The notes: generated from the sequence alone by a model not told the origin. Shown: positions 6,755-23,499, numbered from the stretch's first letter. The stretch is DNA of 64,000 nucleotides from an uncultured cyanobacterium (GCA_963744145.1 CAVUSO010000001.1:1280001-1344000), one strand, 5' to 3'. Numbers and translations: made by a program.

Positions 6755-6821
6755 ATTCTTTGCCGATATCCCCCAAAATACTCTTAAGTGAACCATATTG
6801 CCCGATAAAGGAGAAAAACTG

Positions 6822-8111
6822 ATGAGTGGTAGTCCAAAACATACCCCAGCAGAGTTAGAAAGACGAAGACAGGAACAGCTAGAAAAAGAACGACAACGTA
6901 AAGCCAAAGAAGAAGCAAGACAAAGAGCAGCAGCAGCAGAGAGAGAAAGACTTCAGCGGTTGGAGACTCTCAGAAACCAGTTAATTGCCCAAGTTCAGGC
7001 GATCGCTTCACAAGTGCAGCAACAACAAAATAATATATATAGTGAGGATGGAACAGCACTCCAGAAACGCTGTCAGAATTTGCGTGATACTCTGGGTCAA
7101 GCCCAAACCGAATCTCAACTCCAGAAGATAGCCCAAGCATCACCTCAGATTGAACAAGATTTGCATAAAGCGGTTAGTCGCAAACGTCGAGATGAGGAGG
7201 AGAAAAAGCGACGGTTAGAATTAGAAAAACAACAGTTTGAACTAGAGGAATTAGAGCGACAAATTTCTCAAATTCCTAAAGCGGATGCAACTAAATTTGA
7301 TGCTAATGGATATGCAACAGTACAGCAAGCAATTGGAACAGTAAAAACCGCGATCGCAAGTAGTAATCCGGAAAGCGTCCGCGCACCCCTAGCTAATGCT
7401 ATAAAAGCATTACAAGATCATACCAATTTAGTAATCCAACATCGAACCGAATGGCTGCAACGTAAAGCTGAAGCGGAACAAGCTATTGGTGAACTTCAAG
7501 CATTTATTGTGGGATTAAGAGCTGATCCAGTAGTGATGCGGTGGCACGGACATACTATAACTGAATTGGAAACTCAAGCACAAACAGCAGTGCAAGCCTT
7601 AGCAGCAGAACAGTTTGAGCAACCCGCCAATATTCTAGCAGTAGCCCAGACGCGAGGACAGCAAATCGTAGAAGAAGCTAATGCCGAGCAAATTAAAGCT
7701 GACCAACGGGATTATATTGCTACCAGTATTGCTCAAACCTTGCAAGACATGGGTTTTATCGTTAGTCCTCCTCAAGCTGAATATGCTGATCATCCAAAAA
7801 CAGCCATGATTTTAAAAGCAGCTACTGCTTCAGGTAAAGGAATTAGTGTCAGTGTTCCAGTAGAAGGTGAAGTCTGGTACGACGTAGATGGATATACCAA
7901 AAGTACCGAAGCAGTTGTTGGTGGTGGTAATGCTGCGGTATGCGATGAAGCGGAACAGGTTTTAACCGATATGCACACTGCTTTAGAGGCAGAATTTGGC
8001 GTTAAAATGGGTGAAATTTCTTGGGAAGGAAAAGACCCTAACCGCAAACCGCGTAAAGCGGATGGACTACCTAATAACGATCAACAGCAGGGTAGAGGAG
8101 GTAATCGATGA
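6822..8111 (+). CDS. Coiled-coil protein with a small C-terminal alpha/beta domain (possibly DUF2997-like)
   Basis: AAGGAG RBS then ATG at 6822; long E/Q/R/K heptad region; C-terminal ISVSVPVEGEVWYDVDG...VCD...LEAEFGV. Confidence 0.75.
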   Translation: MSGSPKHTPAELERRRQEQLEKERQRKAKEEARQRAAAAERERLQRLETLRNQLIAQVQAIASQVQQQQNNIYSEDGTALQKRCQNLRDTLGQAQTESQLQKIAQASPQIEQDLHKAVSRKRRDEEEKKRRLELEKQQFELEELERQISQIPKADATKFDANGYATVQQAIGTVKTAIASSNPESVRAPLANAIKALQDHTNLVIQHRTEWLQRKAEAEQAIGELQAFIVGLRADPVVMRWHGHTITELETQAQTAVQALAAEQFEQPANILAVAQTRGQQIVEEANAEQIKADQRDYIATSIAQTLQDMGFIVSPPQAEYADHPKTAMILKAATASGKGISVSVPVEGEVWYDVDGYTKSTEAVVGGGNAAVCDEAEQVLTDMHTALEAEFGVKMGEISWEGKDPNRKPRKADGLPNNDQQQGRGGNR

Positions 8112-10093
8112 ATAGCTCAACTCCCACATCTTCCCGCTGGATTCTCGAATTTGAGAAACAAGTCCATCGCCGTCTGCATATTGTTTTGTATGGTAATATT
8201 CACGACCAGTTTCTCTGGCGCGGTAATTATCAAAATATCCACGAATTTCTCACCGCATACTTTCAAGACTTAAACTTTGAGCTAATTCTTCGGTATGACC
8301 CCATAGATGGGTTTAATTTTGTCAATCCAAAAATGAGACAGGGATTTGATGAATTAGTACGAAGTGGGGTAGCTAAACGGAACCCAGATTTAGGACAAAA
8401 TCCCCCAGTACCTTCACCAGCTCCAAATCCAATGGCACCTCCTCCAAGAGCTAATCCGGGTGCTGTGGGTCCTTCCCTAAATACTAGAGTCTCACCAGAG
8501 GATGCTTTTGGTAATTTGCGAGCTGTCGTATCTCAATCTAAAACTTCAGTAGCTGCAATTGTTGATTTAGGAGATATGCTCACCTCTGATCCAAGTCGCT
8601 ATATTGCTGAAGAGCGAAACGCTTTGGTGTTACTGAATAAATGCACCCTAGAAGCATCTGTGATCAGAGAGGGGGCTTTGAGCGGTTATCGCAATACTTT
8701 GGTGATTTTAGCTAGGGATTTGAAACGGGTGCCAGAGTGGTTTCATCAAAATAATCCCTTTGTCGGGATGGTGCAAATGTCGCGTCCCAATAAAGACGAA
8801 CGATGTCAGTTTATGATGCGTTTTTTCCAGGGATTTTATGAAGGCGATCGCATCAATACTAAACGCTCTTCTCCTCAAGCACCTTCAGAGCTAGAAATTC
8901 TCGCAGAAGAATTTGCTGATCTCACCGAAGGCTTTCGAGCAATGGATTTAGATGCGTTGCGTGCGACTTCTTGGCGTGAGCGCATTCCTCTCCGTGTTAA
9001 AGAAGTCTGGCGGTTAGTGGACTTTTTTAAATTTGGTCTACGGGATGATCCTTGGGAGCAGTTAAGCCCCGAAAAAGTTCGCTCTGCTAGAGAACAACTT
9101 TCTCGCACTGTGATTGGTCAACCTCGTGCAGTTGAATCTGTTACTACTATGCTCACTAGCGCAAGGGTGGGATTGAGCATAAGTAGTAGTGGTCGTAGTG
9201 GCAAACCTAAAGGTATTTTCTTTTTTGTTGGTCCGACAGGAGTTGGCAAAACTGAACTAGCCAAAGCTATGACCAAATTAGTGTTTGGCGATGAGCGATC
9301 GTTTGTCCGTTTTGATATGAGTGAGTACAAAGAAGAACACGCGGCTGAGAAATTAGCAGGCGCTCCTCCCGGTTTTGTGGGTTATGAAGAAGGGGGACAG
9401 CTAACCAATCGCGTGATTGAGCAGCCCTATAGTATTTTGCTGTTTGATGAAATTGAAAAAGCTCATCCCAAGGTGTTAGATAAGTTTTTGCAAATTTTAG
9501 AAGATGGAAGGCTTACTGATGGTAAAGGACAGACTGCTTATTTCAACCAAACTGCAATTATTTTTACTAGCAATATCGGCGCATCGGATTTAACTGATCC
9601 TCAGACAGGTGCGATCGTTCGGTGTGGGATTATGAACAAAGTGCAGCAAGGAAATACTAATGATTTCTCTTACGAAGAGGTAGAAAATCACTTCCGAACT
9701 GAAGTAGATTGGCACTTTACCAGTCGCATTGGTCGGGCGGAACTGCTCAACCGTTTGGGTGATAATATTGTGGTATTTGACTTGCTACGTCCAGATTTTG
9801 TGACTTTAATTGGGCAGAAGTTTTTACGACAACTATCAGATACAGCTCAGGAAAAGTACCGACTCAATTTAAACTTTTTGCCTTCAGTTCTAGATGTTTT
9901 GAGGGTGCGGATGGAACAAGGTAACAATTTACTATTCGGAGGAAGACGGATTAAAACCCTTTTAGAATCATTAGTGGAACGTCCCCTCAATAGTTGGATT
10001 TTTCAAAATTGCCCTGAAACCAGTAAATTAGCAGGGGGCACATTGAGGATTGGGATGACAGTTGATGGATGTTTAGAGGTGACTCATGTTTGA
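8108..10093 (+). CDS. ClpA/ClpB-like AAA+ ATPase (one intact D2-type module, degenerate N-terminal module)
   Basis: Walker A GPTGVGKT, RFDMSEY, pore loop GAPPGFVGY, Walker B LLFDEIEK; ATGA overlap with the upstream gene. Confidence 0.9.
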   Translation: MNSSTPTSSRWILEFEKQVHRRLHIVLYGNIHDQFLWRGNYQNIHEFLTAYFQDLNFELILRYDPIDGFNFVNPKMRQGFDELVRSGVAKRNPDLGQNPPVPSPAPNPMAPPPRANPGAVGPSLNTRVSPEDAFGNLRAVVSQSKTSVAAIVDLGDMLTSDPSRYIAEERNALVLLNKCTLEASVIREGALSGYRNTLVILARDLKRVPEWFHQNNPFVGMVQMSRPNKDERCQFMMRFFQGFYEGDRINTKRSSPQAPSELEILAEEFADLTEGFRAMDLDALRATSWRERIPLRVKEVWRLVDFFKFGLRDDPWEQLSPEKVRSAREQLSRTVIGQPRAVESVTTMLTSARVGLSISSSGRSGKPKGIFFFVGPTGVGKTELAKAMTKLVFGDERSFVRFDMSEYKEEHAAEKLAGAPPGFVGYEEGGQLTNRVIEQPYSILLFDEIEKAHPKVLDKFLQILEDGRLTDGKGQTAYFNQTAIIFTSNIGASDLTDPQTGAIVRCGIMNKVQQGNTNDFSYEEVENHFRTEVDWHFTSRIGRAELLNRLGDNIVVFDLLRPDFVTLIGQKFLRQLSDTAQEKYRLNLNFLPSVLDVLRVRMEQGNNLLFGGRRIKTLLESLVERPLNSWIFQNCPETSKLAGGTLRIGMTVDGCLEVTHV

Positions 10094-11327
10094 TTTGGAA
10101 TTGCTGTGGGATCGACCCGCAAAAATTAGCTCTCAATCGACAACTCATGTGCTGCGATCGCGGATCTATCCTCAATCGGTCGGAAATGCTTTACCTAGCT
10201 TACCCCTACGGATCGCGATCGCTCTCGATACTAGCCAATCAATGCAAGGGGAAAAGCTACAATGTGCTAAGGAAGCTTGCCGTGCGGTTGTTTCTCATTT
10301 ACGTGACACAGATCGCTTATTTCTAGCAGGTTTTTCTACGAGAGTAACACCTTTACTACAATCTCTTACAGGTGGTGCTAATGCTGTTTCATCGGCTAAT
10401 ACAGCGATCGCTAGTTTGCAACCAGAGGGAGTTACTCGCACCGATTTGGCATTAGAATGGATTCAGAATGCCTTACCAAAGGAAACTGGAGTCACAAGAG
10501 TGGGGATTTTGATTACAGATGGTCATGCGACTACTCCCCAAGGTAATCTATTAGATGACGTAACGCCGCTAATTAACCAATCTAGCCAACTGAGTAGTGC
10601 TGGAATTGTGCTGTGTACTGTAGGATTAGGAGATGCAGCTAATTTTAATACAGCTTTTTTAACTGATTTGAGCGACAAGGGAAGGGGTGCGTTTCTCTAT
10701 GCTGACACACCAACTATCCTAAAATCTCTACTCCAAGAAAGACTGGCTGCTTGTCAAGCGATCGCGACGGAAGAAGCTAAACTCCGATTCACTCTAAGTT
10801 CTGGTGTTACCCTCAAAGGTTTTTGTCGTTTCCGTCCCGAATATTTACCTTTGGAAGAAACTGCAAAAAATGAATTAACACTGGGTACGATCGGAACAAA
10901 CTCCCCAACCGATGTATTAATTGACTTAGAAATTCCAGCAAGTGGTTTTGGAGAACCAATGGGTAGTCGAGAAGTAGTTTCAGTCCAGTTAACAGCTAGA
11001 GGAATGACCAACCCGATTACTAAGACAGCAGCGATTACCTATACTAATTCCTACTCAGAAGCGCAAAAAGTTAACGCTGAAGTCAATAACGATCGACTCT
11101 GTTGGGATATTAACGTTTATAGTAATGACCTAACCCGCACTAACGATCCGAAGCGCACAGGAGAATTACTAGATAATATCCAGTTTACAGCTACCCAAGC
11201 CGGACAAGCAAATATTGCGAACCAAGCAGCTCAACAGCTAGATGATCTGAAAAAGACTGGAGTATTGAACCCCCACAAATCAACTGGACTCTTGCGGGAT
11301 TCTCGAAATTTGGGAGGGACAAAATGA
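10086..11327 (+). CDS. vWA domain protein
   Basis: MIDAS LDTSQSM, ILITDG, TVGLG; overlaps the AAA stop codon. Confidence 0.9.
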   Translation: MFDLELLWDRPAKISSQSTTHVLRSRIYPQSVGNALPSLPLRIAIALDTSQSMQGEKLQCAKEACRAVVSHLRDTDRLFLAGFSTRVTPLLQSLTGGANAVSSANTAIASLQPEGVTRTDLALEWIQNALPKETGVTRVGILITDGHATTPQGNLLDDVTPLINQSSQLSSAGIVLCTVGLGDAANFNTAFLTDLSDKGRGAFLYADTPTILKSLLQERLAACQAIATEEAKLRFTLSSGVTLKGFCRFRPEYLPLEETAKNELTLGTIGTNSPTDVLIDLEIPASGFGEPMGSREVVSVQLTARGMTNPITKTAAITYTNSYSEAQKVNAEVNNDRLCWDINVYSNDLTRTNDPKRTGELLDNIQFTATQAGQANIANQAAQQLDDLKKTGVLNPHKSTGLLRDSRNLGGTK

Positions 11328-11728
11328 ATAGTGGTTTTGGGATCGACCCCATTCCTGGGTTATCTCGACTTACCCCGGATAATGCTAAGTTACTATTATT
11401 AAACGGACCAGCAGCAGCAAGTCGGTTTCCTCTTCATCGAATACGATCGCTGATTGGTCGGAATGATCTACCTTTGATAACAGTAGATATTGATCTAACT
11501 GAATGCGAAATTGGCGATCCAATTGCTATATCTCGTCGTCATGCAGTGATTGAGTGGGTAGAAGGGGAATTACAAATTGTGGATTTGTGCAGTAGGAACG
11601 GTACTTTTGTTGATGGTCAAAAATTGACAGCGATCGCTCCTAATCAACCATCAGCTCCTGTCATTTTAAAAGCGGGAAGTAAGGTAAAACTAGGAAACTT
11701 GGAATTTGAGGTGATCACTCATGGATAA
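11324..11728 (+). CDS. FHA domain protein
   Basis: IGR...ISRRHA...DLCSRNGTFVDG; ATGA overlap. Confidence 0.92.
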   Translation: MNSGFGIDPIPGLSRLTPDNAKLLLLNGPAAASRFPLHRIRSLIGRNDLPLITVDIDLTECEIGDPIAISRRHAVIEWVEGELQIVDLCSRNGTFVDGQKLTAIAPNQPSAPVILKAGSKVKLGNLEFEVITHG

Positions 11729-12518
11729 GCCGATTGTAAAACTAGCCTACGGTTCCAAAACCGATCCTGGCAAAATTCGTAAAATCAATGAAGATAATCT
11801 TTTATTAGAATCATGGTCAGATGCTTTACTAGCAGTAGTTGCTGATGGAATGGGAGGACATAAAGGAGGAGAGGTAGCAGCCAAAATTGCCGTTGATACT
11901 TTTCGAGAGTTATTAGATCAGCCCTTACCTAAAGAACCTGTTGAACGATACGAACAACTGTTAAAAAAATTTTATGATGCTGATACTGCTATCCGCGAGC
12001 AATCCTCTCAAGAGTTCAGATTGATGGATATGGGAACTACTTTAATGGCAGCGATCGTTACTCCCACAGAATATATTCATCTATATGCTGGTGACTGTCG
12101 TTTATATCACTTCCACCAGGGAGAATTTACTTATATCTCGGCTGATCATTCAGTAGTCAGGATACTGCAAAACTTGGGAAAGATCACCCCAGAAGAAGCA
12201 GCTACTCATCCAATGCGTTCAGTGGTCAACTCCTGTCTAGGTGGTAAGGGAAATACACAATTCTCTGTTGACCCAAAATGGGACGATGAAAAGTTACCTG
12301 TGTTGCGTGAATTATGTCCAGGTGATGTATTACTACTATGCAGCGACGGACTAAATAGCGAAGTAAGTGACAATCAGTTACAAAATTTGGTGCAACAGTC
12401 TGGAAACTCGACCGAAGAACTGACTAAAGCTTGTGCCGAAGCAGCTTTAGAGCATGGTGGTAAAGATAATATTACAGTTATTGCTATTCAGGTACAGGAG
12501 GAAGATCAGCAAAAATAA
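11721..12518 (+). CDS. PP2C (PPM) Ser/Thr phosphatase
   Basis: RKINED, VADGMGG, MGTT, AGDCR, LLCSDGL, GGKDNIT. Confidence 0.93.
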   Translation: MDKPIVKLAYGSKTDPGKIRKINEDNLLLESWSDALLAVVADGMGGHKGGEVAAKIAVDTFRELLDQPLPKEPVERYEQLLKKFYDADTAIREQSSQEFRLMDMGTTLMAAIVTPTEYIHLYAGDCRLYHFHQGEFTYISADHSVVRILQNLGKITPEEAATHPMRSVVNSCLGGKGNTQFSVDPKWDDEKLPVLRELCPGDVLLLCSDGLNSEVSDNQLQNLVQQSGNSTEELTKACAEAALEHGGKDNITVIAIQVQEEDQQK

Positions 12519-12575
12519 GACAAAATTATCAGCAGAAATAGATAGCAAACTTTAACTAATTGGATTGAAAAGTAT

Positions 12576-14000
12576 ATGAACAATGAGCAACTATACCGAC
12601 GAATGTTGGAAGGACAATGGGTCAATGGACAATATCATCTCAAAAAACTCCTGGGAGCAGGAAGTTACGGAGTAGTTTTTCAAGCAGATGAAGTAGTCGG
12701 AAATCGCCTAGTTCGAGAAGTAGCTATTAAACTAATTTCTCCCAATGATGATGATCGCGATCTCCAGCTCCAAGAATTAATTGATGCAGTTAATTTAGAT
12801 CACCCCAATTTAGTGCGATGCTTTACTTCTGGTTTAGTTAAACTCAACGGAGTTGAATTTTTATATTTAGTCATGGAGCTAGCCCAAAAAACTCTCGCTA
12901 AACATTTAGAAAAAAGCTCTTTGTCTGTAGGAGAAGTGCAAAAAATCGTCCAGGAAATTGCTGCTGGATTAGTTTATCTTCATCGTGAACCCCATCCGCG
13001 AGTGCATCGTGATTTGAAACCAGCTAATGTCCTATGGGTAAGCGATCGCTGGAAATTATCAGATTTTGGGTTATTGCGGTCAACTGGTTCTAAGGGTTCA
13101 GCTCGCACCAGTAAAGTTAGGAGAACTGACGGTTATGCTCCCCCAGAAGCTTATCTCGGAGTGGTGGCTCCCACTTGGGATGTGTGGTCATTAGGGGTGA
13201 TCATGGTGGAAATGCTCACGGGACAGCTACCCTTTACAGGAGATACAGAGCAGGAATTGATCGTAAAAGTAATGGACGGAAAACCATCAATCGAATGGTC
13301 AAAAGTCCACCAATCATTCAGAGAGATCATCAAGGGAGCTTTAGAGAAAGAGCGGAAAGACCGATGGACGGCACAAAGGGTGCTGAATACTTTTACCAAA
13401 AAATATCTCCCTCCAACCATCCCATCTATTGTGAGTCCATTTCCTGGGAAAATAGAAATAGGACAGAATCCTTTTACCGCAAAAGGTATCCCTCTATTTG
13501 ACCCAACTCCAAGCATAGTGAGTCAGCCTCCTGTGCAATTGAAGTCAGCAAAAGGGGTAGATTACACTAATTTACAACGCTTACTAGCCGCAGGAAAATG
13601 GAAGGAAGCGGATGAGGAAACAGGCAAAAAAATGTGCGAGGTCATGGGGCGACAAAAAGAAGGTTGGCTAGATGTCGAACATATCGATAATTTTCCCTGT
13701 GAAGACCTTCGCACAATTGATCAACTTTGGGTAAAATCTAGTAACGGTCATTTTGGCTTTTCTGTGCAAAAGCGTATCTATCAAAGTCTCGGTGGAACCC
13801 GGAACTATGATGAGAAAATCTGGGCTGCTTTTGGCGATCGCGTCGGCTGGAGGAAAAATGGAGACTGGATATACTACAGCGACCTCACCTTCTCAACCAA
13901 ATCTCCCGGTGGCCACCTCCCCTTGTGGTGGGGGAAAGGTCCGTGTGTGGTGGTTGGTGCCTCTTCTCTCGCGTCGAGACTTGTAGACTGTAACATATAA
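12576..14000 (+). CDS. Hanks-type Ser/Thr kinase with C-terminal GUN4-like domain (copy 1)
   Basis: LGAGSYG, VAIK, HRDLKPAN, DFG, APPE; GUN4-like motifs YTNLQRLLAAGKWKEADEET, DLRTIDQLW, GHFGFSVQ, GHLP. Confidence 0.92.
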   Translation: MNNEQLYRRMLEGQWVNGQYHLKKLLGAGSYGVVFQADEVVGNRLVREVAIKLISPNDDDRDLQLQELIDAVNLDHPNLVRCFTSGLVKLNGVEFLYLVMELAQKTLAKHLEKSSLSVGEVQKIVQEIAAGLVYLHREPHPRVHRDLKPANVLWVSDRWKLSDFGLLRSTGSKGSARTSKVRRTDGYAPPEAYLGVVAPTWDVWSLGVIMVEMLTGQLPFTGDTEQELIVKVMDGKPSIEWSKVHQSFREIIKGALEKERKDRWTAQRVLNTFTKKYLPPTIPSIVSPFPGKIEIGQNPFTAKGIPLFDPTPSIVSQPPVQLKSAKGVDYTNLQRLLAAGKWKEADEETGKKMCEVMGRQKEGWLDVEHIDNFPCEDLRTIDQLWVKSSNGHFGFSVQKRIYQSLGGTRNYDEKIWAAFGDRVGWRKNGDWIYYSDLTFSTKSPGGHLPLWWGKGPCVVVGASSLASRLVDCNI

Positions 14001-14008
14001 AGCTTACA

Positions 14009-14245
14009 AAAAATTGTTACATTTTGTAAATACACGATTTCCCACGAAGCCATGCGCCTTCTAGCTTTCCGATACCTGGCACCGACGCCGAGCGAAGTAC
14101 CGACAGTTATTCTGTAGTTTTCTGTAGTATCTGACCCACTACTTCGGGGTTATAACAATTAGCAATGACAAATTTATCAGCCACAGCTAAGATATCTGGA
14201 TTCATTTCCTCAAAATCAGCCCAAGGTAAATTCTTTTCATCTCTT
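14009..14245 (-). pseudogene. 3' remnant of a convergent unknown gene
   Basis: Minus strand reads RDEKNLPWADFEEMNPDILAVADKFVIANCYNPEVVGQ, then about 50 extra nt containing a stop, then PGIGKLEGAWLRGKSCIYKM*. A homologous remnant lies after kinase 3. Confidence 0.5.
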
Positions 14246-14339
14246 TAATAAGCTCGCGATCGGTGTTGGTGGTGGATGGCGATCGGTGTTTAAAGATTTT
14301 TAATAGGTCGCGATCGGTGTTTCCAATAATCAGTTAATT

Positions 14340-14698
14340 GTAGGGGCGAAGCATTCGGGCGACAATTAATCGCATAAAACTTTACCCTGAGCGGAGTCGA
14401 AGGGCAGTAATATTATATCCGAATGCTGATGCCGTAGGCATCGCTACGCGAACGCCCTTCTTCGCCGATATCTCCCAAAACATTCTTAATTGAACCGGAT
14501 TGATATATCATTAATTGAACCGGATTTATATATTAATTGAACCGGATTTATATATTAATTGAACCGGGTTTATATATTAATTGAACCGGATTTATATATA
14601 GTTGATCTGTTGGTTGCATAGATGGTGAGGGCAAAGCATTTCGGTAATGGTTTCTTCGTTTCAGCGATAATTTCTTCGCCGAAATGCTTTGCCCCTAC
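14340..14698. repeat. Composite REP-like module: hairpin A + 5x TTAATTGAACCGG.TT.ATAT + inverted hairpin B
   Basis: GTAG at both outer ends facing inward; hairpin B is GGGCAAAGCATTTCGG...CCGAAATGCTTTGCCCCTAC. Confidence 0.85.
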
Positions 14699-14922
14699 AG
14701 GGAACCGAATCGGATTGTGTTTTCTTATATAGATCGATATTAAATATAATAAATGATGTTTTATTGCGATCGCGTTATGTCTTGAATTGGCGGCGATCGC
14801 AGTTAGATAACTAATTAACTGAAACAAGCGATCGCCAATTCCAGTAATCAGAATCTAATCACTATTGTTGGTGGATGGTGATGGCGTTGGCGTGATAATT
14901 TTCATTGACAGTTGAGTTCTTT

Positions 14923-15164
14923 GTAGGGGCGAAGCATTCGGGCGACAATTTATCGCATAAAACCAATAACATTTTATCCGAATGCTTCGCCCTTCTTCGC
15001 CGATATCTCCCAAAACATTCTTAATTGAACCGGGTTTATCTATTAATTGAACCGGATTTATATATAGTTGATCTGTTGGTTTCATGGATGGTGAGGGCAA
15101 AGCATTTCGGTAATGGTTTCTTCGTTTCAACGATAATTTCTTCGCCGAAATGCTTTGCCCCTAC
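14923..15164. repeat. Composite REP-like module (2 central units)
   Basis: Same A + tandem + B layout as 14340-14698. Confidence 0.85.
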
Positions 15165-15339
15165 AGGGAACCGAATCGGAGTATTGTTATATAGATCGAT
15201 ATTAAATATAATAAATGATGTTTAATTGCGATCGCGTTATGTCTTGAATTGGCGGCGATCGCAGTTAGATAAATAATTTTTGTTAAAATTAGAATATTTA
15301 TAGATTTTTGCTTCTTGTAAGTCTATGGATCTATGGGTG

Positions 15340-15369
15340 TTGATATTTTCGGTTATTCAGGTATATAGT
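15340..15369 (+). promoter_or_regulatory. Putative sigma70-type promoter
   Basis: TTGATA-N18-TATAGT immediately before the structured segment. Confidence 0.4.
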
Positions 15370-15377
15370 AAAGTTAA

Positions 15378-15543
15378 CCATCCGACCTAAACGCATTAAT
15401 ACGAGGGTTTACCATGAGTTTCGACTCACATCGACTCCCAGTGTGCGCTTCCTTCGGTTCCTCCTTTCGACGACCCTCAGAGTAAACGAGCAGGTAAGCG
15501 AACGGGCACACGCAGGTTATGTTTATCCATGTAGGTCGGACTG
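15378..15543. ncRNA. Putative structured RNA or DNA hairpin element, family unknown
   Basis: GC-richer than its flanks; closed by TCCGACCTA/TAGGTCGGA; contains the hairpin TGAGT-TTCG-ACTCA and a long bulged GTGTGC...GCACAC stem. Confidence 0.4.
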
Positions 15544-15594
15544 CGATCGCTCTTAACCGTTTCCTTGAAGTTAACAACAACAAAAACTAAATTT

Positions 15595-15774
15595 ATGGAA
15601 AAAGTTGTATTCAAAACTACTAATAAACAACAACCTACTGACTTTGCTTACTGGCAAAAACAAACGCCTCAAAAACGTTTAGACACTCTCGAACAAATCC
15701 GCCAAGAATATCATCAATATAAATATAATGCTCAACCAAGATTTCAAAGAATTTATACAATTATTAAACGATAA
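15595..15774 (+). CDS. Small protein (59 aa), putative partner of the downstream nucleotidyltransferase
   Basis: DFAYWQKQTPQKRL...RFQRIYTIIKR; overlaps the nucleotidyltransferase start. Confidence 0.6.
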   Translation: MEKVVFKTTNKQQPTDFAYWQKQTPQKRLDTLEQIRQEYHQYKYNAQPRFQRIYTIIKR

Positions 15775-15990
15775 TCAGGTTAAATACCTGGTTATTGGTG
15801 GTTATGCTGTGGCAATTCATTAGTTACTTCACCTGATGGAGTAGATTTTCAAACTTGCTATGATTCAAAAATGGAGTTTATTATTGATGAGATGATGATT
15901 AAATTTATCGATCTTGATAATCTCATAAAAAATAAATTAGCATCGGTTAGACTTCAGGATTTGGCAGATTTAGAAAATTTACAGAACTAA
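15728..15990 (+). pseudogene. Nucleotidyltransferase (TA-associated type) with internal deletion and stop
   Basis: MLNQDFKEFIQLLNDNQVKYLVIGGYAVAIH*, then TSPDGVDF...DNLIKNKLASVRLQDLADLENLQN*. The catalytic RxTxDxD segment expected after the GG motif is missing. Confidence 0.7.
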
Positions 15991-16031
15991 TTATTGCACA
16001 ATCAATTTGAATAAATTGAGCGAAAAAGTCT

Positions 16032-17456
16032 ATGAACAATGAGCAACTATGGCGAATGTTAGCAGGAGAATGTGTCAACGGACAATATCACCTCAAAAAA
16101 CTCCTGGGTGTCGGCAGTTACGGCGCAGTTTTTCAAGCAGATGAAGTGGTCGGCGATCGCCTAGTTCGAGAAGTAGCTATTAAGATAATTTCCCCAGATA
16201 ATGATGAAAAAACCCGCGATCGCCAGCTCCAAGAATTGATTGTCGCGGTTAATTTAGATCACCCGAATTTAATCCGTTGTTTTGCTCCAGGGTTAGCTCA
16301 AATTAAAGGATTTGAATTTTTGTATTTGCTAATGGAGTTAGCAGAAGAAACCCTCGCTAAACGTCTAGAAAAAAGTTCTTTGTCATTGGAAGAAGTACAG
16401 AAAATAGTTCAAGAAATAGCTGCCGGATTAGTTTATCTTCATCGTGAACCCCATCCGAAAGTACATCGTGATTTGAAGCCCGCTAATGTACTACGAGTGG
16501 GCGATCGCTGGAAATTATCAGATTTTGGCTTATTGCGCTCAATCGATTCTCAGGGTTCAGCTCGCACTAGTAAAGGTCAGGGAACTAACGGCTATGCTCC
16601 CCCAGAAGCTTATGATGGAGTAGTTGCTCCAGCTTGGGATGTGTGGTCATTAGGAGTAATCATGGTGGAACTGCTCACGGGACAGCTACCCTTTACAGGA
16701 GATACAGAGCAGGAATTGCTCAAAAAAGTAATGGAGGGTAAACCATCAATCGAATGGTCAAAAGTCCACCAATCATTCAGAGAGATGATCAAGGGAGCTT
16801 TAGAGAAAGAGCGGCAAAACCGATGGACGGCAGAAATGGTGCTGAATACTTTTACCAAAAAAGATCTCCCTCCAACTACCCCATCCATTGAGAGTCAGCC
16901 TCCTTTGCAATTGAAGTCAGCAAAAGGAGTAGACTACACTAATTTACAACGCTTACTAGCCGCAGGGAAATGGAAAGAAGCGGATGAGGAAACAAGCAAA
17001 AAAATGTGCGGGGTCATGGGGCGACAAGAAGAAGGTTGGTTAAGAAGCGAAGATATTGATAATTTTCCCTGCGAAGACCTTCGCACAATTGATCAACTTT
17101 GGGTAAAATCTAGTAACGGTCATTTTGGCTTTTCTGTGCAAAAGCGCATCTATCAAAGTCTCGGTGGAACCCGGAACTATGATGAGAAAATTTGGGAAGC
17201 TTTTGGCGATCGCGTTGGCTGGAGGAAAAATGGAGCTTGGATATACTACAGTGACCTCACTTTCTCAACCACTTCTTTGGTGGGCCATATCCCTGGGTTA
17301 CCACTTCTTTGTTTGGAGGGCTATCTCCCTGTTGTATTGGTGGTGAGTGTTTGGATAGGTAAAGAGGTTTTTTGGGTTGTCTCTTCTCTCGCGTCGAGAC
17401 TTGTAGACTCTTCTCCAAGCCAGGCGCATTCTGATTCAGATATCATCCTATTGTAA
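16032..17456 (+). CDS. Ser/Thr kinase-GUN4 protein (copy 2)
   Basis: Same motifs as copy 1; different linker and tail. Confidence 0.92.
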   Translation: MNNEQLWRMLAGECVNGQYHLKKLLGVGSYGAVFQADEVVGDRLVREVAIKIISPDNDEKTRDRQLQELIVAVNLDHPNLIRCFAPGLAQIKGFEFLYLLMELAEETLAKRLEKSSLSLEEVQKIVQEIAAGLVYLHREPHPKVHRDLKPANVLRVGDRWKLSDFGLLRSIDSQGSARTSKGQGTNGYAPPEAYDGVVAPAWDVWSLGVIMVELLTGQLPFTGDTEQELLKKVMEGKPSIEWSKVHQSFREMIKGALEKERQNRWTAEMVLNTFTKKDLPPTTPSIESQPPLQLKSAKGVDYTNLQRLLAAGKWKEADEETSKKMCGVMGRQEEGWLRSEDIDNFPCEDLRTIDQLWVKSSNGHFGFSVQKRIYQSLGGTRNYDEKIWEAFGDRVGWRKNGAWIYYSDLTFSTTSLVGHIPGLPLLCLEGYLPVVLVVSVWIGKEVFWVVSSLASRLVDSSPSQAHSDSDIILL

Positions 17457-17459
17457 TAA

Positions 17460-17740
17460 TACCGTGATCGGTGTTAGGGGTGGATGGTGATCGCAGTTTA
17501 ACGATTTTCAATAATAAGATCGCGATCGGTGTTTCCGGTAATCAAAATCTAATTGCTGTTAGTGGATGGCGATCGCAGGTTGACGATTTTAATAATAAGA
17601 CAATCTTAAATTGAATCAATCTATCATCATAAATTTGGATAATAAATGACATTTAAGCGCGATCGCATTATGTCTTTAATTGCAGGCGATCGCAGTTTAA
17701 CGATTTTCACGGTTGTCGCGATCGGTGTTTCCAATAATCA
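17460..17740. repeat. Degenerate HIP1-centred short repeats
   Basis: Recurring GCGATCGGTGTT / GTGGATGGCGATCGCAGTTT.ACGATTTT units; similar units at 14254-14335. Confidence 0.6.
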
Positions 17741-17747
17741 GTTAATT

Positions 17748-18063
17748 GTAGGGGCGAAGCATTCGGGCGACAATTAATCGCACAAAACTTTACCCTGAGC
17801 GGAGTCGAAGGGCAGTAACATTATATCCGAATGCTTCGCCCTTCTTCGCCGATATCTCCCAAAACATTCTTAATTGAACCGGATTTATATATCATTAATT
17901 GAACTGGATTTATATATCATTAATTGAACCGGATTTATATATTAATTGAACCGGATTTATATATAGTTGATCTGTTGGTTGCATAGATGGTGAGGGCAAA
18001 GCATTTCGGTAATGGTTTCTTCGTTTCAGCGATAATTTCTTCGCCGAAATGCTTTGCCCCTAC
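17748..18063. repeat. Composite REP-like module (4 central units)
   Basis: Near-identical to 14340-14698. Confidence 0.85.
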
Positions 18064-18226
18064 AGGGAACCGAATCGGATTGTGTTTTCTTATATAGATC
18101 GATATTAAATATAATAAATGATGTTTAATTGCGATCGCATTATGTCTTTAATTGGCGGCGATCGCAGTTAGATAACTAATTATCTGCTAAAATAAGAAAG
18201 AAGTCAACCACTATTAAAGTTCCTCA

Positions 18227-19235
18227 ATGCAAGACAAACCCCGCGCCGACTACGATAGTCCTTGGAAAGAAGCCATTAACAGTTACTTTGAACCTTTCAT
18301 GAATTTTTTCTTTCCGGTCATCCATCAAGAAATCGACTGGACAAAAGGCTATGAAACCTTAGATGCAGACTTACAAGAAGTCGTAAGAGATGCAGAAACG
18401 GGGAATCGTTTAGCCGATAAGCTCGTGAAAGTTTGGTTAAATCATAGCACCCAGGAAATTTTAATCCTGGTGCATATCGAAATCCAAGGAGGAGTAGATC
18501 CGAACTTTGCGAAACGGATGTTTATCTACAATCACCGTTTATTTGACCGATACGATCGAGAAGTGATTAGTTTAGCAGTATTAGGAGATGAGCAAAAATC
18601 CTGGCGTCCCAATAGTTATGGTTATGCAATGTGTGGATTTAGTAGCCAATTGCAGTTTCCCATCGTCAAACTCTTAGACTACCAAGAACAATGGGAGTTG
18701 CTTGAACAAAGCACTAATCCTTTTGCTGTAATTGTCATGGCACATTTAACTGCAAAGGAAACCACCAGAGATCCACAAAGAAGATTACAAGGGAAACTCA
18801 GCATAGTGCGGGGGCTATATGAACGGGGCTATAATAGGGAGGAAATCAAGCGAACTATTTCGGTTAATTGACTGGATGATGGTATTACCAGACCAGCTAG
18901 AACAGGATTTTCGGGTGGAATACAAACGGTTTCAGGAGGAAAATCAAGTGCCATATATCACCAGTATTGAACGTTTAGCGAAAGCAGAAGGTAGAGAAGA
19001 AGGCTTAGAAGAAGGGATCGAACAAGGAATCGAACAAGGAATCGAACGAGGCAGTGTACAAACAGCACAGGAAAATATCATCACAGTGTTGGAGACTAGG
19101 TTTGGAGAAGTACCAGAAATCTTCAGAGAGCGGATTAATCAAATCGAAGATTTAGCCACATTAAGACAACTTCTCATTCGTGGCATTACGATCGCTTCTT
19201 TCGAGGATTTTGAGCAAGAAATCTCTTCAAATTAG
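18227..19235 (+). pseudogene. Rpn/transposase_31-like protein, frameshifted near 18848
   Basis: DYDSPWKE...HIEIQG...RMFIYNHR, continuing in another frame as ELFRLIDWMMVLP...EEGIEQG...LETRFGEVP; one extra A in GAAATCAAGCGAA. Confidence 0.8.
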
Positions 19236-19376
19236 TCACTAGGTTCTAGTTAATTCCCCTATTGGGTTGAGGGGCGATCGCTATTTATCTGCTCTGATAT
19301 AGAGATTTAGATGCGATCGCCTCTTCTCACAAAATACCACCCCGAGACAAATTGAATAAATTGATCGAAAAATCCT

Positions 19377-20699
19377 ATGAACAATGAGCAACTGTGGCGA
19401 ATGTTGACAGGAGAATGTGTCAATGGACAATATCACCTCAAAAAACTCCTGGGCGTCGGCAGTTACGGCGCAGTTTTTCAAGCGGATGAAGTTGTTGGCG
19501 ATCGCTTAATTCGCCAAGTAGCTGTTAAGCTAATTTCTCCAGATGGAGATGATAAAAATCGCGATCGCCAGCTCCAAGAATTAATTACTGCCGTTAATCT
19601 AGATCACCCGAATTTAGTACGCTGCTTTACTTCAGGGTTAGCTGAAATCAAAGGATTTGAATTTTTGTATTTAGTCATGGAGTTAGCAGAAGAAACCCTC
19701 ACCAAAAGTCTTTCAGAAAAAAGCTCTTTGTCTGTGGGAGAAGTGCAAAAAATAGTTGAGGAAATAGCTTCAGCATTGGTTTATCTTCATCATGAACCCG
19801 AGCGGAGAGTACATCGCGATTTGAAACCAGCTAATGTACTAAGAGTAGGCGATCGCTGGAAATTATCAGATTTTAGCTTATTGCGGTCAATCGGTTCTAA
19901 GGGTTCAGCTCGCACCAGTAAAGGTCAGGGAACTAACGGCTATGCTCCTCCAGAAGCTTATGATGGAGTAGTTGCTCCAGCTTGGGATGTGTGGTCATTA
20001 GGAGTAATCATGGTGGAACTGCTCACGGGACAGCCACCCTTTACAGGAGATACAGAGCAGGAATTGATCAAAAAAGTCATGGAGGGTAAACCATCAATCG
20101 AATGGTCAAAAGTCCACCAATCATTCAGAGAGATGATCAAGGGAGCTTTAGAGAAAGAGCGGAAAGACCGATGGACGGCAGAAATGGTGTTGAATACTTT
20201 TAAAGAGCGCCCGACCATATTACCGTCAGCAGATTACCAAAAGTTAGAAAGCTTACTAGCCGCAGGAAAATGGGAAGAAGCTGATCAGGAAACAGCAAAA
20301 AAAATGTGCGCGGTAATGGAGCGAGAAAAAGAAGGTTGGCTAAGACCCGAAGATATTGATAATTTTCCCTGCGAAGACCTTCGCACAATTGATCAACTTT
20401 GGGTACATTATAGCAATGGTCATTTTGGCTTTTCCGTGCAGAAGCGGATCTATCAAAGTCTGGGTGGAACTTGCAACTACGATCAAAACATTTGGACTGC
20501 TCTTGGCGATCGCGTTGGTTGGAGGCAAAATGAACAATGGCTATACTACAATGATCTCACATTCTCAGTCGAAAATTCTCCCGAAGGCCATCTTCCATTG
20601 GGAGTGAGAAAAGCGATTTGGCGCGGTTGTGGTTTTGCAGGTTGGTTTGGTCTTTGTGGCACTTCTCTCGCGTCGAGACTTGGAGATTGTAACATCTAA
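19377..20699 (+). CDS. Ser/Thr kinase-GUN4 protein (copy 3; DFG changed to DFS)
   Basis: Kinase and GUN4-like motifs; LSDFSLL; short linker. Confidence 0.9.
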   Translation: MNNEQLWRMLTGECVNGQYHLKKLLGVGSYGAVFQADEVVGDRLIRQVAVKLISPDGDDKNRDRQLQELITAVNLDHPNLVRCFTSGLAEIKGFEFLYLVMELAEETLTKSLSEKSSLSVGEVQKIVEEIASALVYLHHEPERRVHRDLKPANVLRVGDRWKLSDFSLLRSIGSKGSARTSKGQGTNGYAPPEAYDGVVAPAWDVWSLGVIMVELLTGQPPFTGDTEQELIKKVMEGKPSIEWSKVHQSFREMIKGALEKERKDRWTAEMVLNTFKERPTILPSADYQKLESLLAAGKWEEADQETAKKMCAVMEREKEGWLRPEDIDNFPCEDLRTIDQLWVHYSNGHFGFSVQKRIYQSLGGTCNYDQNIWTALGDRVGWRQNEQWLYYNDLTFSVENSPEGHLPLGVRKAIWRGCGFAGWFGLCGTSLASRLGDCNI

Positions 20700-20716
20700 G
20701 ACTTTCAGACAATTTT

Positions 20717-20820
20717 TAGATTTTATGAATACAATATTTTTCACGAAGCCATCTGCTTGATTTCTTTCCGATACCTGAATGATCCACGACTTGGGGGTTA
20801 TAACAATTAGCGATCGCATT
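20717..20820 (-). pseudogene. 3' remnant of a convergent unknown gene (second copy)
   Basis: Minus strand AIANCYNPQVVDHSGIGKKSSRWLREKYCIHKI*, homologous to the remnant after kinase 1. Confidence 0.5.
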
Positions 20821-20937
20821 TTATCTCTTTGTTAATAAGATTGCGATCGCTGTTTCGGGTAATCAGAATATAATCACTGTTATTGGTGGATGGCGATGGC
20901 GTTGCCGTGATAATTTTCATTGATAGTTCAGTTACTT

Positions 20938-21290
20938 GTAGGGGCGAAGCATTCGGGCGACAATTAATCGCACAAAACTTTACCCTGAGCGTTCCCTGAG
21001 CGGAGTCGAAGGGCGGAGTCGAAGGGCGGAGTCGAAGGGCAGTAATATTATATCCGAATGCTTCGCCCTTCTTCGCCGATATCTCCCAAAACATTCTTAA
21101 TTGAACCGGATTGATATATCATTAATTGAACCGGATTGATATATCATTAATTGAACCGGGTTTATCTATTAATTGAACCGGATTTATATATAGTTGATCT
21201 GTTGGTTTCATCGATGGTGAGGGCAAAGCATTTCGGTAATGGTTTCTTCGTTTGGGCGATAATTTCTTCACCGAAATGCTTTGCCCCTAC
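20938..21290. repeat. Composite REP-like module (4 central units; 13-bp GGCGGAGTCGAAG triplicated in the loop of hairpin A)
   Basis: Same A + tandem + B layout. Confidence 0.85.
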
Positions 21291-21350
21291 AGGGAACTGA
21301 ATCGGCTGGTGTTTTCTCCTATAGATCGCTATTAAATTGAATTAATCTAT

Positions 21351-21958
21351 TATGGTTATGCAATGTGTGGATTTAGTAGCCAATTGCAGTTTCCCATCGT
21401 CAAACTCTTAGACTACCAAGAACAATGGGAGTTTTTGGAACAAAGTACCAATCATGAAAGCAGTAATTGTCATGGCACATTTAACAGCAAAGGAAACCAC
21501 CAGAGATCCACAAAGAAGATTACAAGGGAAACTCAGCATAGTGCGGGGACTATATGAACGGGGCTATAATAGGGAGGAAATCAAGCGAACTATTTCGGTT
21601 AATTGACTGGATGATGGTATTACCAGACCAGCTAGAACAGGATTTTCGGGTGGAATACAAACGGTTTCAGGAGGAAAATCAAGTGCCATATATCACCAGT
21701 ATTGAACGTTTAGCCAAAGCAGAAGGTAGAGAAGAAGGCTTAGAAGAAGGGATCGAACAAGGAATCGAACGAGGCAGTGTACAAAATTCACGGGAAAATA
21801 TCATCACGGTGTTGGAGACTAGGTTTGGAGAAGTGCCAGAAATCTTCAGAGAGCGGATTAATCAAATCGAAAATTTAGCCACATTAAGACAACTTCTCAT
21901 TCGTGGCATTACGATCGCTTCTTTCGAGGATTTTGAGCAAGAAATCTCTTCAAATTAG
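21351..21958 (+). pseudogene. 5'-truncated duplicate of the Rpn-like gene
   Basis: Near-identical to 18616-19235, with the same frameshift plus a further lesion near 21455. Confidence 0.85.
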
Positions 21959-22096
21959 TCACTAGGATCTAGTTAATTCCAATATTGGGTTGAGGAGCGA
22001 TCGCAATTTATCTGCTCTTATATAGAGATTTAGATGCGATCGCCTCTTCTCAAAATACACCCCGATACAAATTGAAGAAATTGAGCGAAAAAGTCT

Positions 22097-23488
22097 ATGC
22101 ACGATCAGCAACTGTGGCGAATCTTAGAAGGAGAATGTGTCAACGGACAATATCATCTCAAAAAACTATTAGGAGTAGGAGGCTTTGGAGGAGTTTTTCA
22201 AGCAGATGAAGTGGTCGGCGATCGCCTAGTTCGAGAAGTAGCTATTAAGCTAATTTCCCCAGATAGTGATGAAAAAAATCGCGATCGCCAGCTCCAAGAA
22301 TTGATTGATGCTGTTAATCTAGATCACCCCAATTTAGTGCGATGCTTTACTTCTGGTTTAGTTGAAATCAAAGGGTTTAAATTTTTGTATTTAGTAATGG
22401 AACTAGCCCAAGAAACCCTGGCTAAACGTCTAGAAAAAAGCTCTTTGTCGGTGGAAGAAGTGCAAAAAATCGTCCAGGAAATCGCTGCTGGATTGGTTTA
22501 TCTTCATCATGAACCCGATCCGAAAGTACATCGCGATTTGAAGCCTGCTAATGTACTAAGAGTAGGCGATCGCTGGAAATTATCAGATTTTGGCTTATTG
22601 CGTTCAATCGGTTCTAAAGGTTCAGCTCGTACCAGTAAAGGTGGGGGAACTTACAGCTATGCTCCCCCAGAAGCTTATGACGGAGTAGTTGCTCCAGCTT
22701 GGGATGTATGGTCATTAGGAGTAATCATGGTGGAAATGCTCACAGGACAGCTACCCTTTACAGGAGATACAGAGCAGGAATTGATCGTAAAAGTAATGGA
22801 GGGTAAACCATCAATCGAATGGTCAAAAGTCCACCAATCATTCAGAGAGATGATCAAGGGAGCTTTAGAGAAAGAGCGGAAAGACCGATGGACAGCAGAA
22901 ATGGTGCTGAATACTTTGACCGGACTAACCCCAACTCGTCCAACAGAAAGCCAGCAGACTGTATCCTTGAAGTCAGCAAAAGGAATAGATTACACTAATT
23001 TACAATGCTTACTAGCCGCAGGGAAATGGGAGGAAGCTGATGAAGAAACATATAAAAAAATGTGCGAGGTCATGGGACGACAAAGAGAAGGTTGGCTAGA
23101 TGTCGAACAGATCGATAATTTTCCTAGTGAAGACCTTCGCACAATTGATCAACTTTGGGTAAAATCTAGTAACGGTCATTTTGGCTTTTCTGTGCAAAAG
23201 CGCATCTATCAAAGTCTGGGTGGAACCCAGAACTATGATCAGACAATTTGGGAAGCTTTTGGCGATCGCATCGGTTGGAGGAAAAATGGATACTGGATAT
23301 CTACCAGTAAACACACCTTCTCAAAGGATTCTCCCGTTGGCCATCTCCCCTCGGCGAGGTGGGGGCGCGATTGGGGTACTATGGTGGCGGCGGCGGCTGT
23401 GTGGGGGTGGCGTTATTTTATCGGGGGGGAAGGGATTTTTGATGGTTTTAAATGTGGGTGGTCTCTTCTCTCGCGTCGAGACTTGTAA
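22097..23488 (+). CDS. Ser/Thr kinase-GUN4 protein (copy 4)
   Basis: LGVGGFGG, HRDLKPAN, DFG, GUN4-like motifs; ends LLSRRDL* by reading the shared 3' anchor in another frame. Confidence 0.92.
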   Translation: MHDQQLWRILEGECVNGQYHLKKLLGVGGFGGVFQADEVVGDRLVREVAIKLISPDSDEKNRDRQLQELIDAVNLDHPNLVRCFTSGLVEIKGFKFLYLVMELAQETLAKRLEKSSLSVEEVQKIVQEIAAGLVYLHHEPDPKVHRDLKPANVLRVGDRWKLSDFGLLRSIGSKGSARTSKGGGTYSYAPPEAYDGVVAPAWDVWSLGVIMVEMLTGQLPFTGDTEQELIVKVMEGKPSIEWSKVHQSFREMIKGALEKERKDRWTAEMVLNTLTGLTPTRPTESQQTVSLKSAKGIDYTNLQCLLAAGKWEEADEETYKKMCEVMGRQREGWLDVEQIDNFPSEDLRTIDQLWVKSSNGHFGFSVQKRIYQSLGGTQNYDQTIWEAFGDRIGWRKNGYWISTSKHTFSKDSPVGHLPSARWGRDWGTMVAAAAVWGWRYFIGGEGIFDGFKCGWSLLSRRDL

Positions 23489-23499
23489 ACATCAAAACA

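Follow-up and report, generated by a model that had tools for sequence, protein, structure and literature searches.

Variable tails between two constrained DNA sites in the kinase-GUN4 genes of an uncultured cyanobacterium, and their linkage to a Y1 transposase gene

A stretch of 64,000 nucleotides (nt) from an uncultured cyanobacterium (GCA_963744145.1 CAVUSO010000001.1:1280001-1344000), referred to here as the window and meaning the whole of the DNA that was analysed, contains four tandem genes on the + strand whose products join a Ser/Thr kinase domain to a GUN4 domain behind it; each gene ends in a G/T-rich tail that cannot be aligned with the other three. An initial annotation of the window had proposed a diversification system resembling complementarity-determining region 3 (CDR3), in which the segment is written or replaced at a fixed site. 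The tail was found to lie between two nucleotide-constrained sites, the second of which opens an element of about 125 nt that is read in three frames across Cyanobacteria and, in some other genomes, is followed by a convergent Y1 transposase gene.

The four tails and their reading in three frames

The kinase-GUN4 genes are located at 12576..14000 (474 aa), 16032..17456 (474 aa), 19377..20699 (440 aa) and 22097..23488 (463 aa), and kinase and GUN4 domains alike were recognized in the four proteins with Pfam E values of about 1e-43 to 1e-45. Their DNA is about 85% identical overall, and in the paralog alignment the identity per 60 nt is 83-97% across the kinase and GUN4 parts and 0.29-0.38 in the tail. 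Two zones cannot be aligned: the linker between the two domains, and the stretch past the GH(L/I)P codons, which start at 13911, 17283, 20586 and 23339 (in paralog 1 GGCCACCTCCCC, 13911..13922, +). Each tail ends at a 21-mer, CTTCTCTCGCGTCGAGACTTG, that is present exactly four times, always on the + strand (13963, 17383, 20662 and 23465) and once behind each gene; no further or inverted copy was found on either strand of the 64-kb window at up to 3 mismatches. The occurrence expected by chance was 0 in 100 shuffles, and by star-tree arithmetic the identity of 21 nt in four copies at about 15% divergence has a probability of about 1e-3.

The tails themselves occupy 13923..13962 (40 nt, G+T 0.82), 17295..17382 (88 nt), 20598..20661 (64 nt) and 23351..23464 (114 nt), all on the + strand, with G+T of 0.75-0.82 against 0.49 in the gene bodies and G counts of 20/40 in copy 1, 26/64 in copy 3 and 55/114 in copy 4. 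The G/T skew described in the initial annotation was confirmed, and its anchor positions, insert lengths and G counts were exact on recount. The tail lengths modulo 3 are 1, 1, 1 and 0, so that copies 1-3 read the 21-mer as SSLASRL... (frame a; paralog 1 ends in SSLASRLVDCNI*, and the open reading frame (ORF) of paralog 2 continues beyond a truncated element) and copy 4 reads it as SLLSRRDL* (frame b). This change of frame and the unalignable linker had both escaped earlier notice. Within tail 2 the ...ACCACTTCTTTG...CCCTG segment that precedes it is repeated in tandem in degenerate form, GHIP codons too (12-nt repeat, 17268-17279). Small minus-strand ORFs spanning the tail (20565-20831; 13874-14149) are open without a family match, and an antisense reading was rejected, antisense tail frames being open in just 49-53 of 88 tails.

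A scan for the 21-mer, with two positions set as R and one genome per species, gave 122 matches in at least 120 loci; with the four copies in the window 126 matches were analysed, and the figures given hold among the matches listed. The protein homologs were 120 listed of 3,559 matches and 120 listed of 916 short ones. The loci represent Nostocales, Oscillatoriales, Chroococcales, Spirulinales, Leptolyngbyales, Nodosilineales and other orders, and named records are almost all Cyanobacteria, the exceptions being one Candidatus Sericytochromatia metagenome-assembled genome and one 'uncultured bacterium'. The homologs listed, from many cyanobacterial genera, show GHLP, then an unalignable stretch, then one of three C-terminal motifs, SSLASRLVxCNI, LFSR[VI]ETCKL and LLS[RH][RQ]DL, which are three translations of one nucleotide sequence that has a stop codon in each of its three frames. 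Lineage variants of this sequence show in two frames together, for example as VKCNI and ETCKM in Microcystis.

GH[LIVFM]P is encoded within 450 nt upstream in 90 of the 126 matches (window included), and in these the tail is 31-201 nt long (median 62.5). The three values of tail length modulo 3 are represented by 27, 30 and 33 of the 90 tails, and, as the initial annotation required, frame is not kept. Read on from GHLP, the ORF stays open as far as the 21-mer in 85/90; with a relaxed anchor (AHLP, GYLP etc.) there are 109 open tails, divided among the frame classes as 46/32/31. Just 4 of the 122 matches (L061, L090, L107 and L117) have no recognizable GUN4 domain upstream, and for three of the four no more than 300 nt of flank is available. 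At L107, from Nodosilinea sp. LEGE 07088, a G/T-rich stretch and the element stand behind a membrane-protein ORF without GUN4, an orphan that could be a relic or a donor. All three frames of the first 39 nt of the element (e.g. L036, 1499-1537) encode a hydrophobic-hydrophobic-Ser-Arg (φφSR-type) peptide, and frames a and c both end in SRxxxCxx*. Ser-Arg in all three frames arose in 10 of 200,000 shuffles, in a test made post hoc. The three-frame Ser-Arg may be a by-product of the small palindrome of the element.

The base composition of the tails was determined over 88 distinct sequences (88/90 tails are distinct). At codon positions 1/2/3 the frequencies are.17/.17/.14 for A,.14/.12/.12 for C,.365/.363/.385 for G and.33/.35/.36 for T; there is no codon periodicity in the tails, and the 300 nt ahead of GHLP have a normal one. 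The G/T bias is on the sense strand, begins no more than 6 nt past the border in a step-like manner and is uniform along the tail. Since the bias is uniform from the border onward and without codon structure, it is not due to amino-acid preference, and by arithmetic the amino acids of the tails (G, V, L, R, F, W) approximate a random translation of the base composition. The used frame is open in 83/88 tails, against 35.5 expected from shuffles, and the two off frames in 35 and 36 of 88, as expected by chance; the depletion of stops is confined to the frame in use.

Internal direct repeats of at least 8 nt occur in 32/88 tails, together with tandem duplications of 8-18 nt, and GGGGGG is the commonest hexamer (49 occurrences), with G runs as long as 12. 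Segments of at least 9 nt copied from the final 60 nt of the GUN4 domain were found in 7 tails against 0.83 expected, tail 2 of the window among them; copies of the element's own start inside tails were not found beyond chance. A fold-back origin was rejected, as no palindromic signature was detected in the tails and inverted copies of either flank are not in excess. The donor search by blastn-short, against the window and the at least 120 loci, returned self matches only for the four window tails, and their best non-self match within the window is 12 nt or less.

The element, its borders and the convergent Y1 transposase gene

The 21-mer that had served as an anchor in the initial annotation is not a protein motif; it is the opening of the element of about 125 nt, whose conservation runs beyond all of the stop codons and ends near GATACCTGGCAC. 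Conservation at positions +21 to +37 is 0.70-0.89 and alike whether the DNA is translated or untranslated, and at positions +24 to +30 it is 0.86 where untranslated (class b) versus 0.88 in class a and 0.83 in class c. As the element is equally conserved whether it is translated or not, the constraint acts on nucleotides, and this comparison of frame classes rules out a protein-coding cause. Of 124 nhmmer matches, 69 extend to model position 120 or beyond. In the window, full elements follow paralog 1 (13960..14084, +, with the 21-mer at 13963-13983; model 3-127, E 7.8e-31) and paralog 3 (20660..20777, +; model 4-121, E 5.4e-22), and truncated elements consisting of the first ~30 nt follow paralog 2 (17379..17409, +) and paralog 4 (23461..23490, +); nhmmer detected no copy beyond the four GUN4 tails in either orientation of the 64 kb. 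Rfam gave no match for window positions 12000-24500 or for 10 loci, single-sequence folds of the 3' part had a mean z of +0.19, and DNA folds of the window copy had z of -0.7 to +0.4. An early impression of compensatory changes in a 3' hairpin of the element failed on RNA folding tests.

The element site is also occupied by other repeats. Partial tandem or direct second copies of the element start are present at L118, L105, L108 and L062, and at L118 the two copies are 84 nt apart, the second having base 1 of the 21-mer as its exact start. The element of many Nostocales is broken off after ...TGTAAC by a small repeat (ACGCCCTAACGGGAAGTCAAAAG...), followed by (AGTCAAA)n heptamer arrays; other loci have (GCAATTC)n arrays downstream, and other repeats lie downstream of the 21-mer at L012, L015, L079, L086, L095, L036, L040, L093 and L113. 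The site seems to draw other small repeats.

The tail is bounded by two nucleotide-level sites, GGACACCTCCC (the GHLP codons) and TCTCTTCTCTCGCRTCGAGACTTG. In two pairs of loci, each within a single genome (L058/L062 in Microcystis and L031/L032 in Dolichospermum), the flanks are 96-100% identical and the tails unrelated, with the break point exactly after ...CACCTCCC and before (T)TCTCTTCTC / (T)TCTCTTCTCTCGCG. At the 5' border, over 54 loci, the Leu codon is CTC in 74% against a background of 15% in the same genes, the His codon CAC in 81% against 52%, and the Gly codon GGA in 63% against 31%; Pro is free to vary at its third codon base. Exact borders and nucleotide constraint on both flanks support the proposal of the initial annotation that the segment is replaced at a fixed site. 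The constrained CACCTCC (window 13914-13921; 54 loci) is the same as the 16S rRNA 3' end (anti-Shine-Dalgarno), and GGAGG-like strings are frequent in the G-rich tails; the likeness may be coincidence.

The same contrast was seen among proteins clustered at 90% identity or more, where the last tail differs wholesale between members and internal tails are constant; 5 distinct last tails were counted in a Microcystis cluster (in all three frames), 4 in Planktothrix and 7 in Microcoleus. The homologs P0139 and P0148 have one difference in the 170 residues ahead of the tail and unrelated tails, and a +1/+2 frameshift of one DNA as the source of this difference was ruled out by hand working.

By tblastn, 47 of 122 matches were found to have a gene or gene remnant behind the element. 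It lies on the opposite strand in every case, mostly 93-250 nt past the start of the 21-mer and in some up to ~800 nt. The product of this convergent gene in related loci is a Y1_Tnp protein (Pfam E 1.6e-19), and public plasmid records with the same gene layout annotate it as 'transposase'. Full-length copies number 14 (tblastn), and the HUH (NHVH), WE and YIHANP motifs are all intact in 10 of 16 transposase ORFs, a motif set that fits the class 2.1 table of Quentin et al. 2018 (PMC6006769) as far as that source was consulted; a PDB sequence search with the transposase gave no match. The 3' end of the gene overlaps the element, which on that side is read in at least two frames (VPGIG... / CQVSE...). 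The initial annotation had named no enzyme that could act here; besides the gene in other genomes, the window has two remnants, both on the - strand, a C-terminal part of 45 aa at 14107..14244 (tblastn 14134-14361, E 0.002) and a second at 20716..20820 (...AIANCYNPQVV...), recognized by short-peptide likeness to the first without a tblastn match. A degenerate direct copy of the element at L062 lies immediately past the transposase gene on its 5' side, giving the appearance of a newer unit inserted before an older one.

The GUN4 domain, tail, element and transposase gene together form a portable 3' module on unrelated N-terminal effectors. Three genes of one Stigonema genome, whose unrelated N-termini are EAD1-CHAT, AAA_35 and Pkinase, have in common a DNA block of 76-96% identity; the similarity sets in where the GUN4 domain starts, is lost over the tail and returns for the element and tnpA. 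This block fits the many GUN4 fusion architectures among the homologs, which include kinase, caspase, CHAT, TPR, TIR, trypsin and FGE-sulfatase.

The four window proteins match PF05419 (E about 1e-45) at 147-154 bits (cut-off 29.2) over model positions 2-129 of 141, and phmmer against GUN4 gave E 1e-24 to 8e-22. GHLP aligns to residues 205-208 of Synechocystis GUN4 (SynGUN4), and in the parts consulted of PMC1084334 the residues past it are the α6/α7 loop (L210, R214, R217) that binds porphyrin, the porphyrin lying over Leu210 and Arg214 being essential for binding; the LxNxLR bilin-binding motif lies in the same stretch and is absent from GUN4 paralogs, according to the passages seen of PMC10156173. 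From this alignment the tail occupies the place of the ligand-binding loop and last helix of GUN4 proper, and the putative ligand-binding surface named in the initial annotation is upheld at the level of the alignment. The window tails past GHLP are unrelated to each other and do not have the LxNxLR motif, by which measure the window proteins do not appear to be GUN4 orthologs of the Mg-chelatase cofactor kind. AlphaFold2 (AF2) models have a predicted local distance difference test (pLDDT) score of 83-97 in the core and below 50 in the tails, and therefore say nothing on tail structure.

How the tails may have come to differ

The reading to which we incline, tentatively and at a little less than an even chance, is that, between the two fixed DNA sites, the DNA of the tail is replaced or written in one block, the process most likely being started by the linked Y1 nuclease. 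The nuclease would make a single-strand cut at the junction of tail and element, and repair would then either copy another tail by gene conversion or perform a non-homologous, G/T-biased fill-in, with local duplication contributing more length changes. Rewriting of the tail as a block would change the ligand-binding loop of GUN4, and the element would supply a short C-terminus and a stop in each frame, whatever the tail length. Both the action of a nuclease here and the origin of the new DNA we infer from these patterns. Copies that have lost the transposase gene, among them the four of the window, are probably products that have become frozen.

Several observations weigh against this account. 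A transposase gene or remnant accompanies only 47/122 matches, the nearest NCBIfam model (REP-associated tyrosine transposase, REP_Tyr_transpos) is reached with 72.5 bits, below its cut-off of 80, and both the activity of the Y1 protein and its cut site at the junction are putative. No second insertion-sequence end beyond tnpA was found by nhmmer or flank conservation, barring the degenerate copy at L062. RNAalifold of 53 elements gave 3 pairs and -0.44 kcal/mol, that is no conserved fold, and the sole hairpin in the element is of 5 bp (TCTCG/CGAGA) and is missing from a diverged Cylindrospermopsis copy. Since the loci were picked by the exact 21-mer, the conservation within it is by construction. 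The internal repeats and upstream copies in the tails indicate that ordinary slippage adds to the length variation. The members of a protein cluster may represent different loci, and in Planktothrix cluster 5 the differences reach 3-15 codons upstream of GHLP, like conversion tracts; with identical flanks, gene conversion is not distinguishable from a site-specific event. Identical tails occur in many strains, for example in the Microcystis 652-aa set, and the tail type RFWDDWxWKGVGGGS is common to Nostocales and Microcystis, from which it follows that tails can be stable and selected. With no more than transposase remnants left in the window, its four tails may have ceased to change.

The earlier interpretation is retained in part: fixed-site replacement, a mechanism other than a diversity-generating retroelement (DGR) and the place in the binding loop were supported; ongoing CDR3-like diversification was not, many tails being identical across many strains, and the absence of a candidate enzyme did not hold. 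A stronger form of the proposal would make the locus a new class of targeted protein diversification, in which a domesticated Y1 (HUH) single-strand nuclease cuts at a fixed site behind GHLP, the loop is rewritten with non-homologous G/T-biased DNA of arbitrary length, the three-frame ending rescues every product, and the module is portable onto the kinase, caspase, CHAT, TPR and STAND effectors with which cyanobacterial conflict systems are equipped; this is possible and, on present evidence, doubtful.

The strongest competitor, which we consider unlikely, is ordinary homologous recombination, by which paralogs under diversifying selection would trade tails through gene conversion, with the GUN4 DNA and the element as homology arms and the transposase as a bystander. 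Genomes have many GUN4 tails to trade (besides the four in the window, P0252 and P0253 lie on the same 7.6-Mb contig), near-perfect homology is available over 21-125 nt of flank, some tails are found again in several proteins, and in Planktothrix cluster 5 and Microcystis cluster 1 the GUN4 domain, too, shows mosaic-like differences. Recombination leaves the origin of the tails unexplained, however, along with their sense-strand G/T bias without codon structure, the synonymous-site constraint at GHLP and the constant convergent transposase gene; nor does it account easily for a set in which nearly all tails are distinct and in which the window tails have no donor in the window or in the at least 120 loci.

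Neutral read-through is improbable. It would place an IS200-like element behind GUN4 by descent or repeated insertion, the ORF running on to a stop and a functionless tail drifting by slippage, in keeping with tail peptides that resemble a random translation of their nucleotide composition, with the low pLDDT of the tails, with the frequent truncation of elements and transposase genes, and with stops in all three frames, which arise in 9.3% of shuffles of the element start. The excess of open used frames, with off frames at chance, is at odds with it, and drift cannot yield flanks of 96-100% identity around unrelated tails; both borders are moreover nucleotide-constrained phylum-wide, and one tail type is conserved across orders.

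A contingency locus is more improbable again. Slippage in poly-G runs or short repeats would shift the frame and switch the protein among three C-termini, a three-state phase variation for which the frequent G runs, the 8-18-nt tandem duplications and the rarity in shuffles of a φφSR-type ending in all three frames can be cited. Against this, close copies differ by wholesale replacement and not by changes of 1-2 nt in a run, identical tails are found in many strains, and the off frames are open at chance level only, so that most slips would truncate the protein ahead of the element.

A reverse transcriptase (RT) system, whether a DGR or another retroelement, that writes the tail with a template at some other genomic site is hardly credible and, in the case of a DGR, all but refuted: the tail lengths differ, the window has no template repeat and no RT among the 29 ORFs scanned, and the variation is not adenine-specific, even though cyanobacterial conflict systems often contain DGRs and GUN4 is met next to DGR-targeted FGS domains (PMC7159879, PMC7517822, each in the parts consulted) and the homolog P0063 combines GUN4 with FGE-sulfatase.

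Were the preferred reading of block replacement true, it would describe a second, RT-independent way for Cyanobacteria to vary a binding surface of immunity or signalling proteins, and the first system to tolerate out-of-frame length changes, by way of a DNA element with an ending in every frame. It would also assign a function to domesticated class 2, RAYT-like Y1 transposases, give a reason why GUN4 paralogs lost the tetrapyrrole-binding motif, and show a sensor domain being shuffled onto many effectors. Even on the most cautious reading, a sequence of 21-125 nt that is conserved phylum-wide and translated in all three frames is a rare and clear-cut instance of selection on nucleotides within coding DNA, and bears on the annotation and alignment of genes with GUN4 tails.

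Genomic setting and comparison with known systems

Upstream of the kinase-GUN4 genes is an operon on the same strand (6798..12518, +), identified with Pfam, NCBIfam and PADLOC, in which an unknown 437-aa ORF is followed by genes for a ClpB-like AAA+ ATPase (AAA_2, 8108-10093), a vWA protein (10086-11327), an FHA protein (11324-11728) and a PP2C phosphatase (11721-12518). The kinase-GUN4 protein fits the PADLOC kinase defence model PD-T4-6 (PDLC04062, E 2.2e-69, residues 19-473, GUN4 part included), a defence role that is predicted only.

Of the ORFs between paralogs (18227-19235; 21554-21958), those of 214 and 134 aa are without a Pfam, PADLOC or NCBIfam match, and one of 138 aa has no Pfam match and weak, sub-threshold PADLOC and NCBIfam matches. 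The 134-aa ORF is not the FHA protein, though of the same length. The inter-paralog spacers (14250-15350; 20820-21340) are made up of repeated units resembling miniature inverted-repeat transposable elements, with the translated strings ...YINPVQL... and ...GAKHFGEEII..., and these units have overwritten most of the window's transposase genes. The kinase-GUN4 linkers (13400-13560, 16870-16960, 20200-20260 and 22930-22990), the second unalignable zone, are length-variable, with ~30 extra residues in copy 1 and the LKSAKG start missing from copy 3, and their position is that of the left border of the portable GUN4 module in Stigonema. A ParE-family toxin gene (23865-24170, -; Pfam E 1.8e-10) lies directly behind the fourth kinase-GUN4 gene, and at 43996-54840 four tandem paralogous sensor histidine kinases (dCache-HAMP-HisKA-HATPase, ~725 aa each) constitute a second tandem sensor duplication.

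In the parts consulted of Kaur et al. 2020 and 2021 (PMC7159879, PMC8195603), GUN4 is a cyanobacteria-only effector domain of MoxR-vWA conflict systems and is read as a tetrapyrrole sensor, and the passages on GUN4 seen there make no mention of a variable tail. The 'ternary' system, as described in what was seen of the 2020 paper, consists of a MoxR ATPase, a vWA protein and a variable effector. Genes for vWA, FHA, PP2C and kinase-GUN4 proteins are present in the window, but the ATPase there is of the ClpB-like AAA_2 type and not MoxR; a MoxR gene precedes a GUN4 protein in NZ_CP060823.1. In the open full-text literature that was searched, no description was found of the variable tail, the three-frame motif or the Y1 link, or of a tail-diversifying role for IS200/RAYT enzymes; a single paper, PMC9529120, was matched by the peptide motifs.

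The pattern fits none of the known diversification systems that were tested. Among the systems nearest to it are IS200/IS605 insertion sequences and RAYTs, the transposases associated with repetitive extragenic palindromic (REP) sequences (class 2 TnpA-Y1; PMC6006769, in part), with which it has in common a Y1_Tnp gene with subclass 2.1-like motifs, conserved flanking DNA and several copies per genome (four Stigonema loci). HUH and catalytic Tyr were found together in related loci only, and one conserved flank was seen, with nothing else conserved past the 5' end of the transposase gene. In the loci examined no paired ends and no REP/REPIN repeats were found, the element not being dispersed in the window; as a difference from those systems, the conserved flank invariably continues a GUN4 ORF at its 3' end and is translated in any frame, and a hypervariable segment lies at the junction. 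Shufflons and other invertible segments find no counterpart, as the window has no inverted 21-mer at up to 3 mismatches and no recombinase domain among its scanned ORFs. The G runs and short tandem repeats of contingency loci are present, yet the differences observed are whole-tail replacements.

GUN4/Ycf53, the Mg-chelatase cofactor (PDB 1Y6I, 1Z3X), has the same core fold, but in the proteins described here a variable tail replaces the LxNxLR α6/α7 loop and last helix, and the domain is fused to kinases and other effectors. DGRs likewise produce a hypervariable C-terminal ligand-binding region in cyanobacterial signalling and conflict proteins. A conserved initiation of mutagenic homing (IMH) site lies directly 3' of their variable region, like the element behind the tail. 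DGR variable regions, however, keep their length, vary at template adenines and need an RT and a template repeat, whereas here the length is free, no template repeat was detected in the window and Pfam found no RT domain in the ORFs scanned; with no donor identified either, the view of the initial annotation that this is not a DGR is sustained.

Cassette replacement after a site-specific cut is known from yeast MAT switching and from Neisseria pilE/pilS. As in those systems, a block between two conserved flanks is swapped whole with sharp borders and a nuclease gene is linked; unlike them, no silent donor cassettes were identified, the four of 122 element copies without GUN4 upstream being candidate donors at most, the tails form no families and frame is not kept. 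A further likeness, the one drawn in the initial annotation, is to the CDR3 of variable-diversity-joining (V(D)J) recombination, a length-variable, non-homologous and non-frame-preserving junction between conserved segments in a binding loop. The two differ in that no somatic variation or fold-back signature is seen here, in the strand-specific G/T bias, and in that out-of-frame products are rescued by an element with an ending in all three frames.

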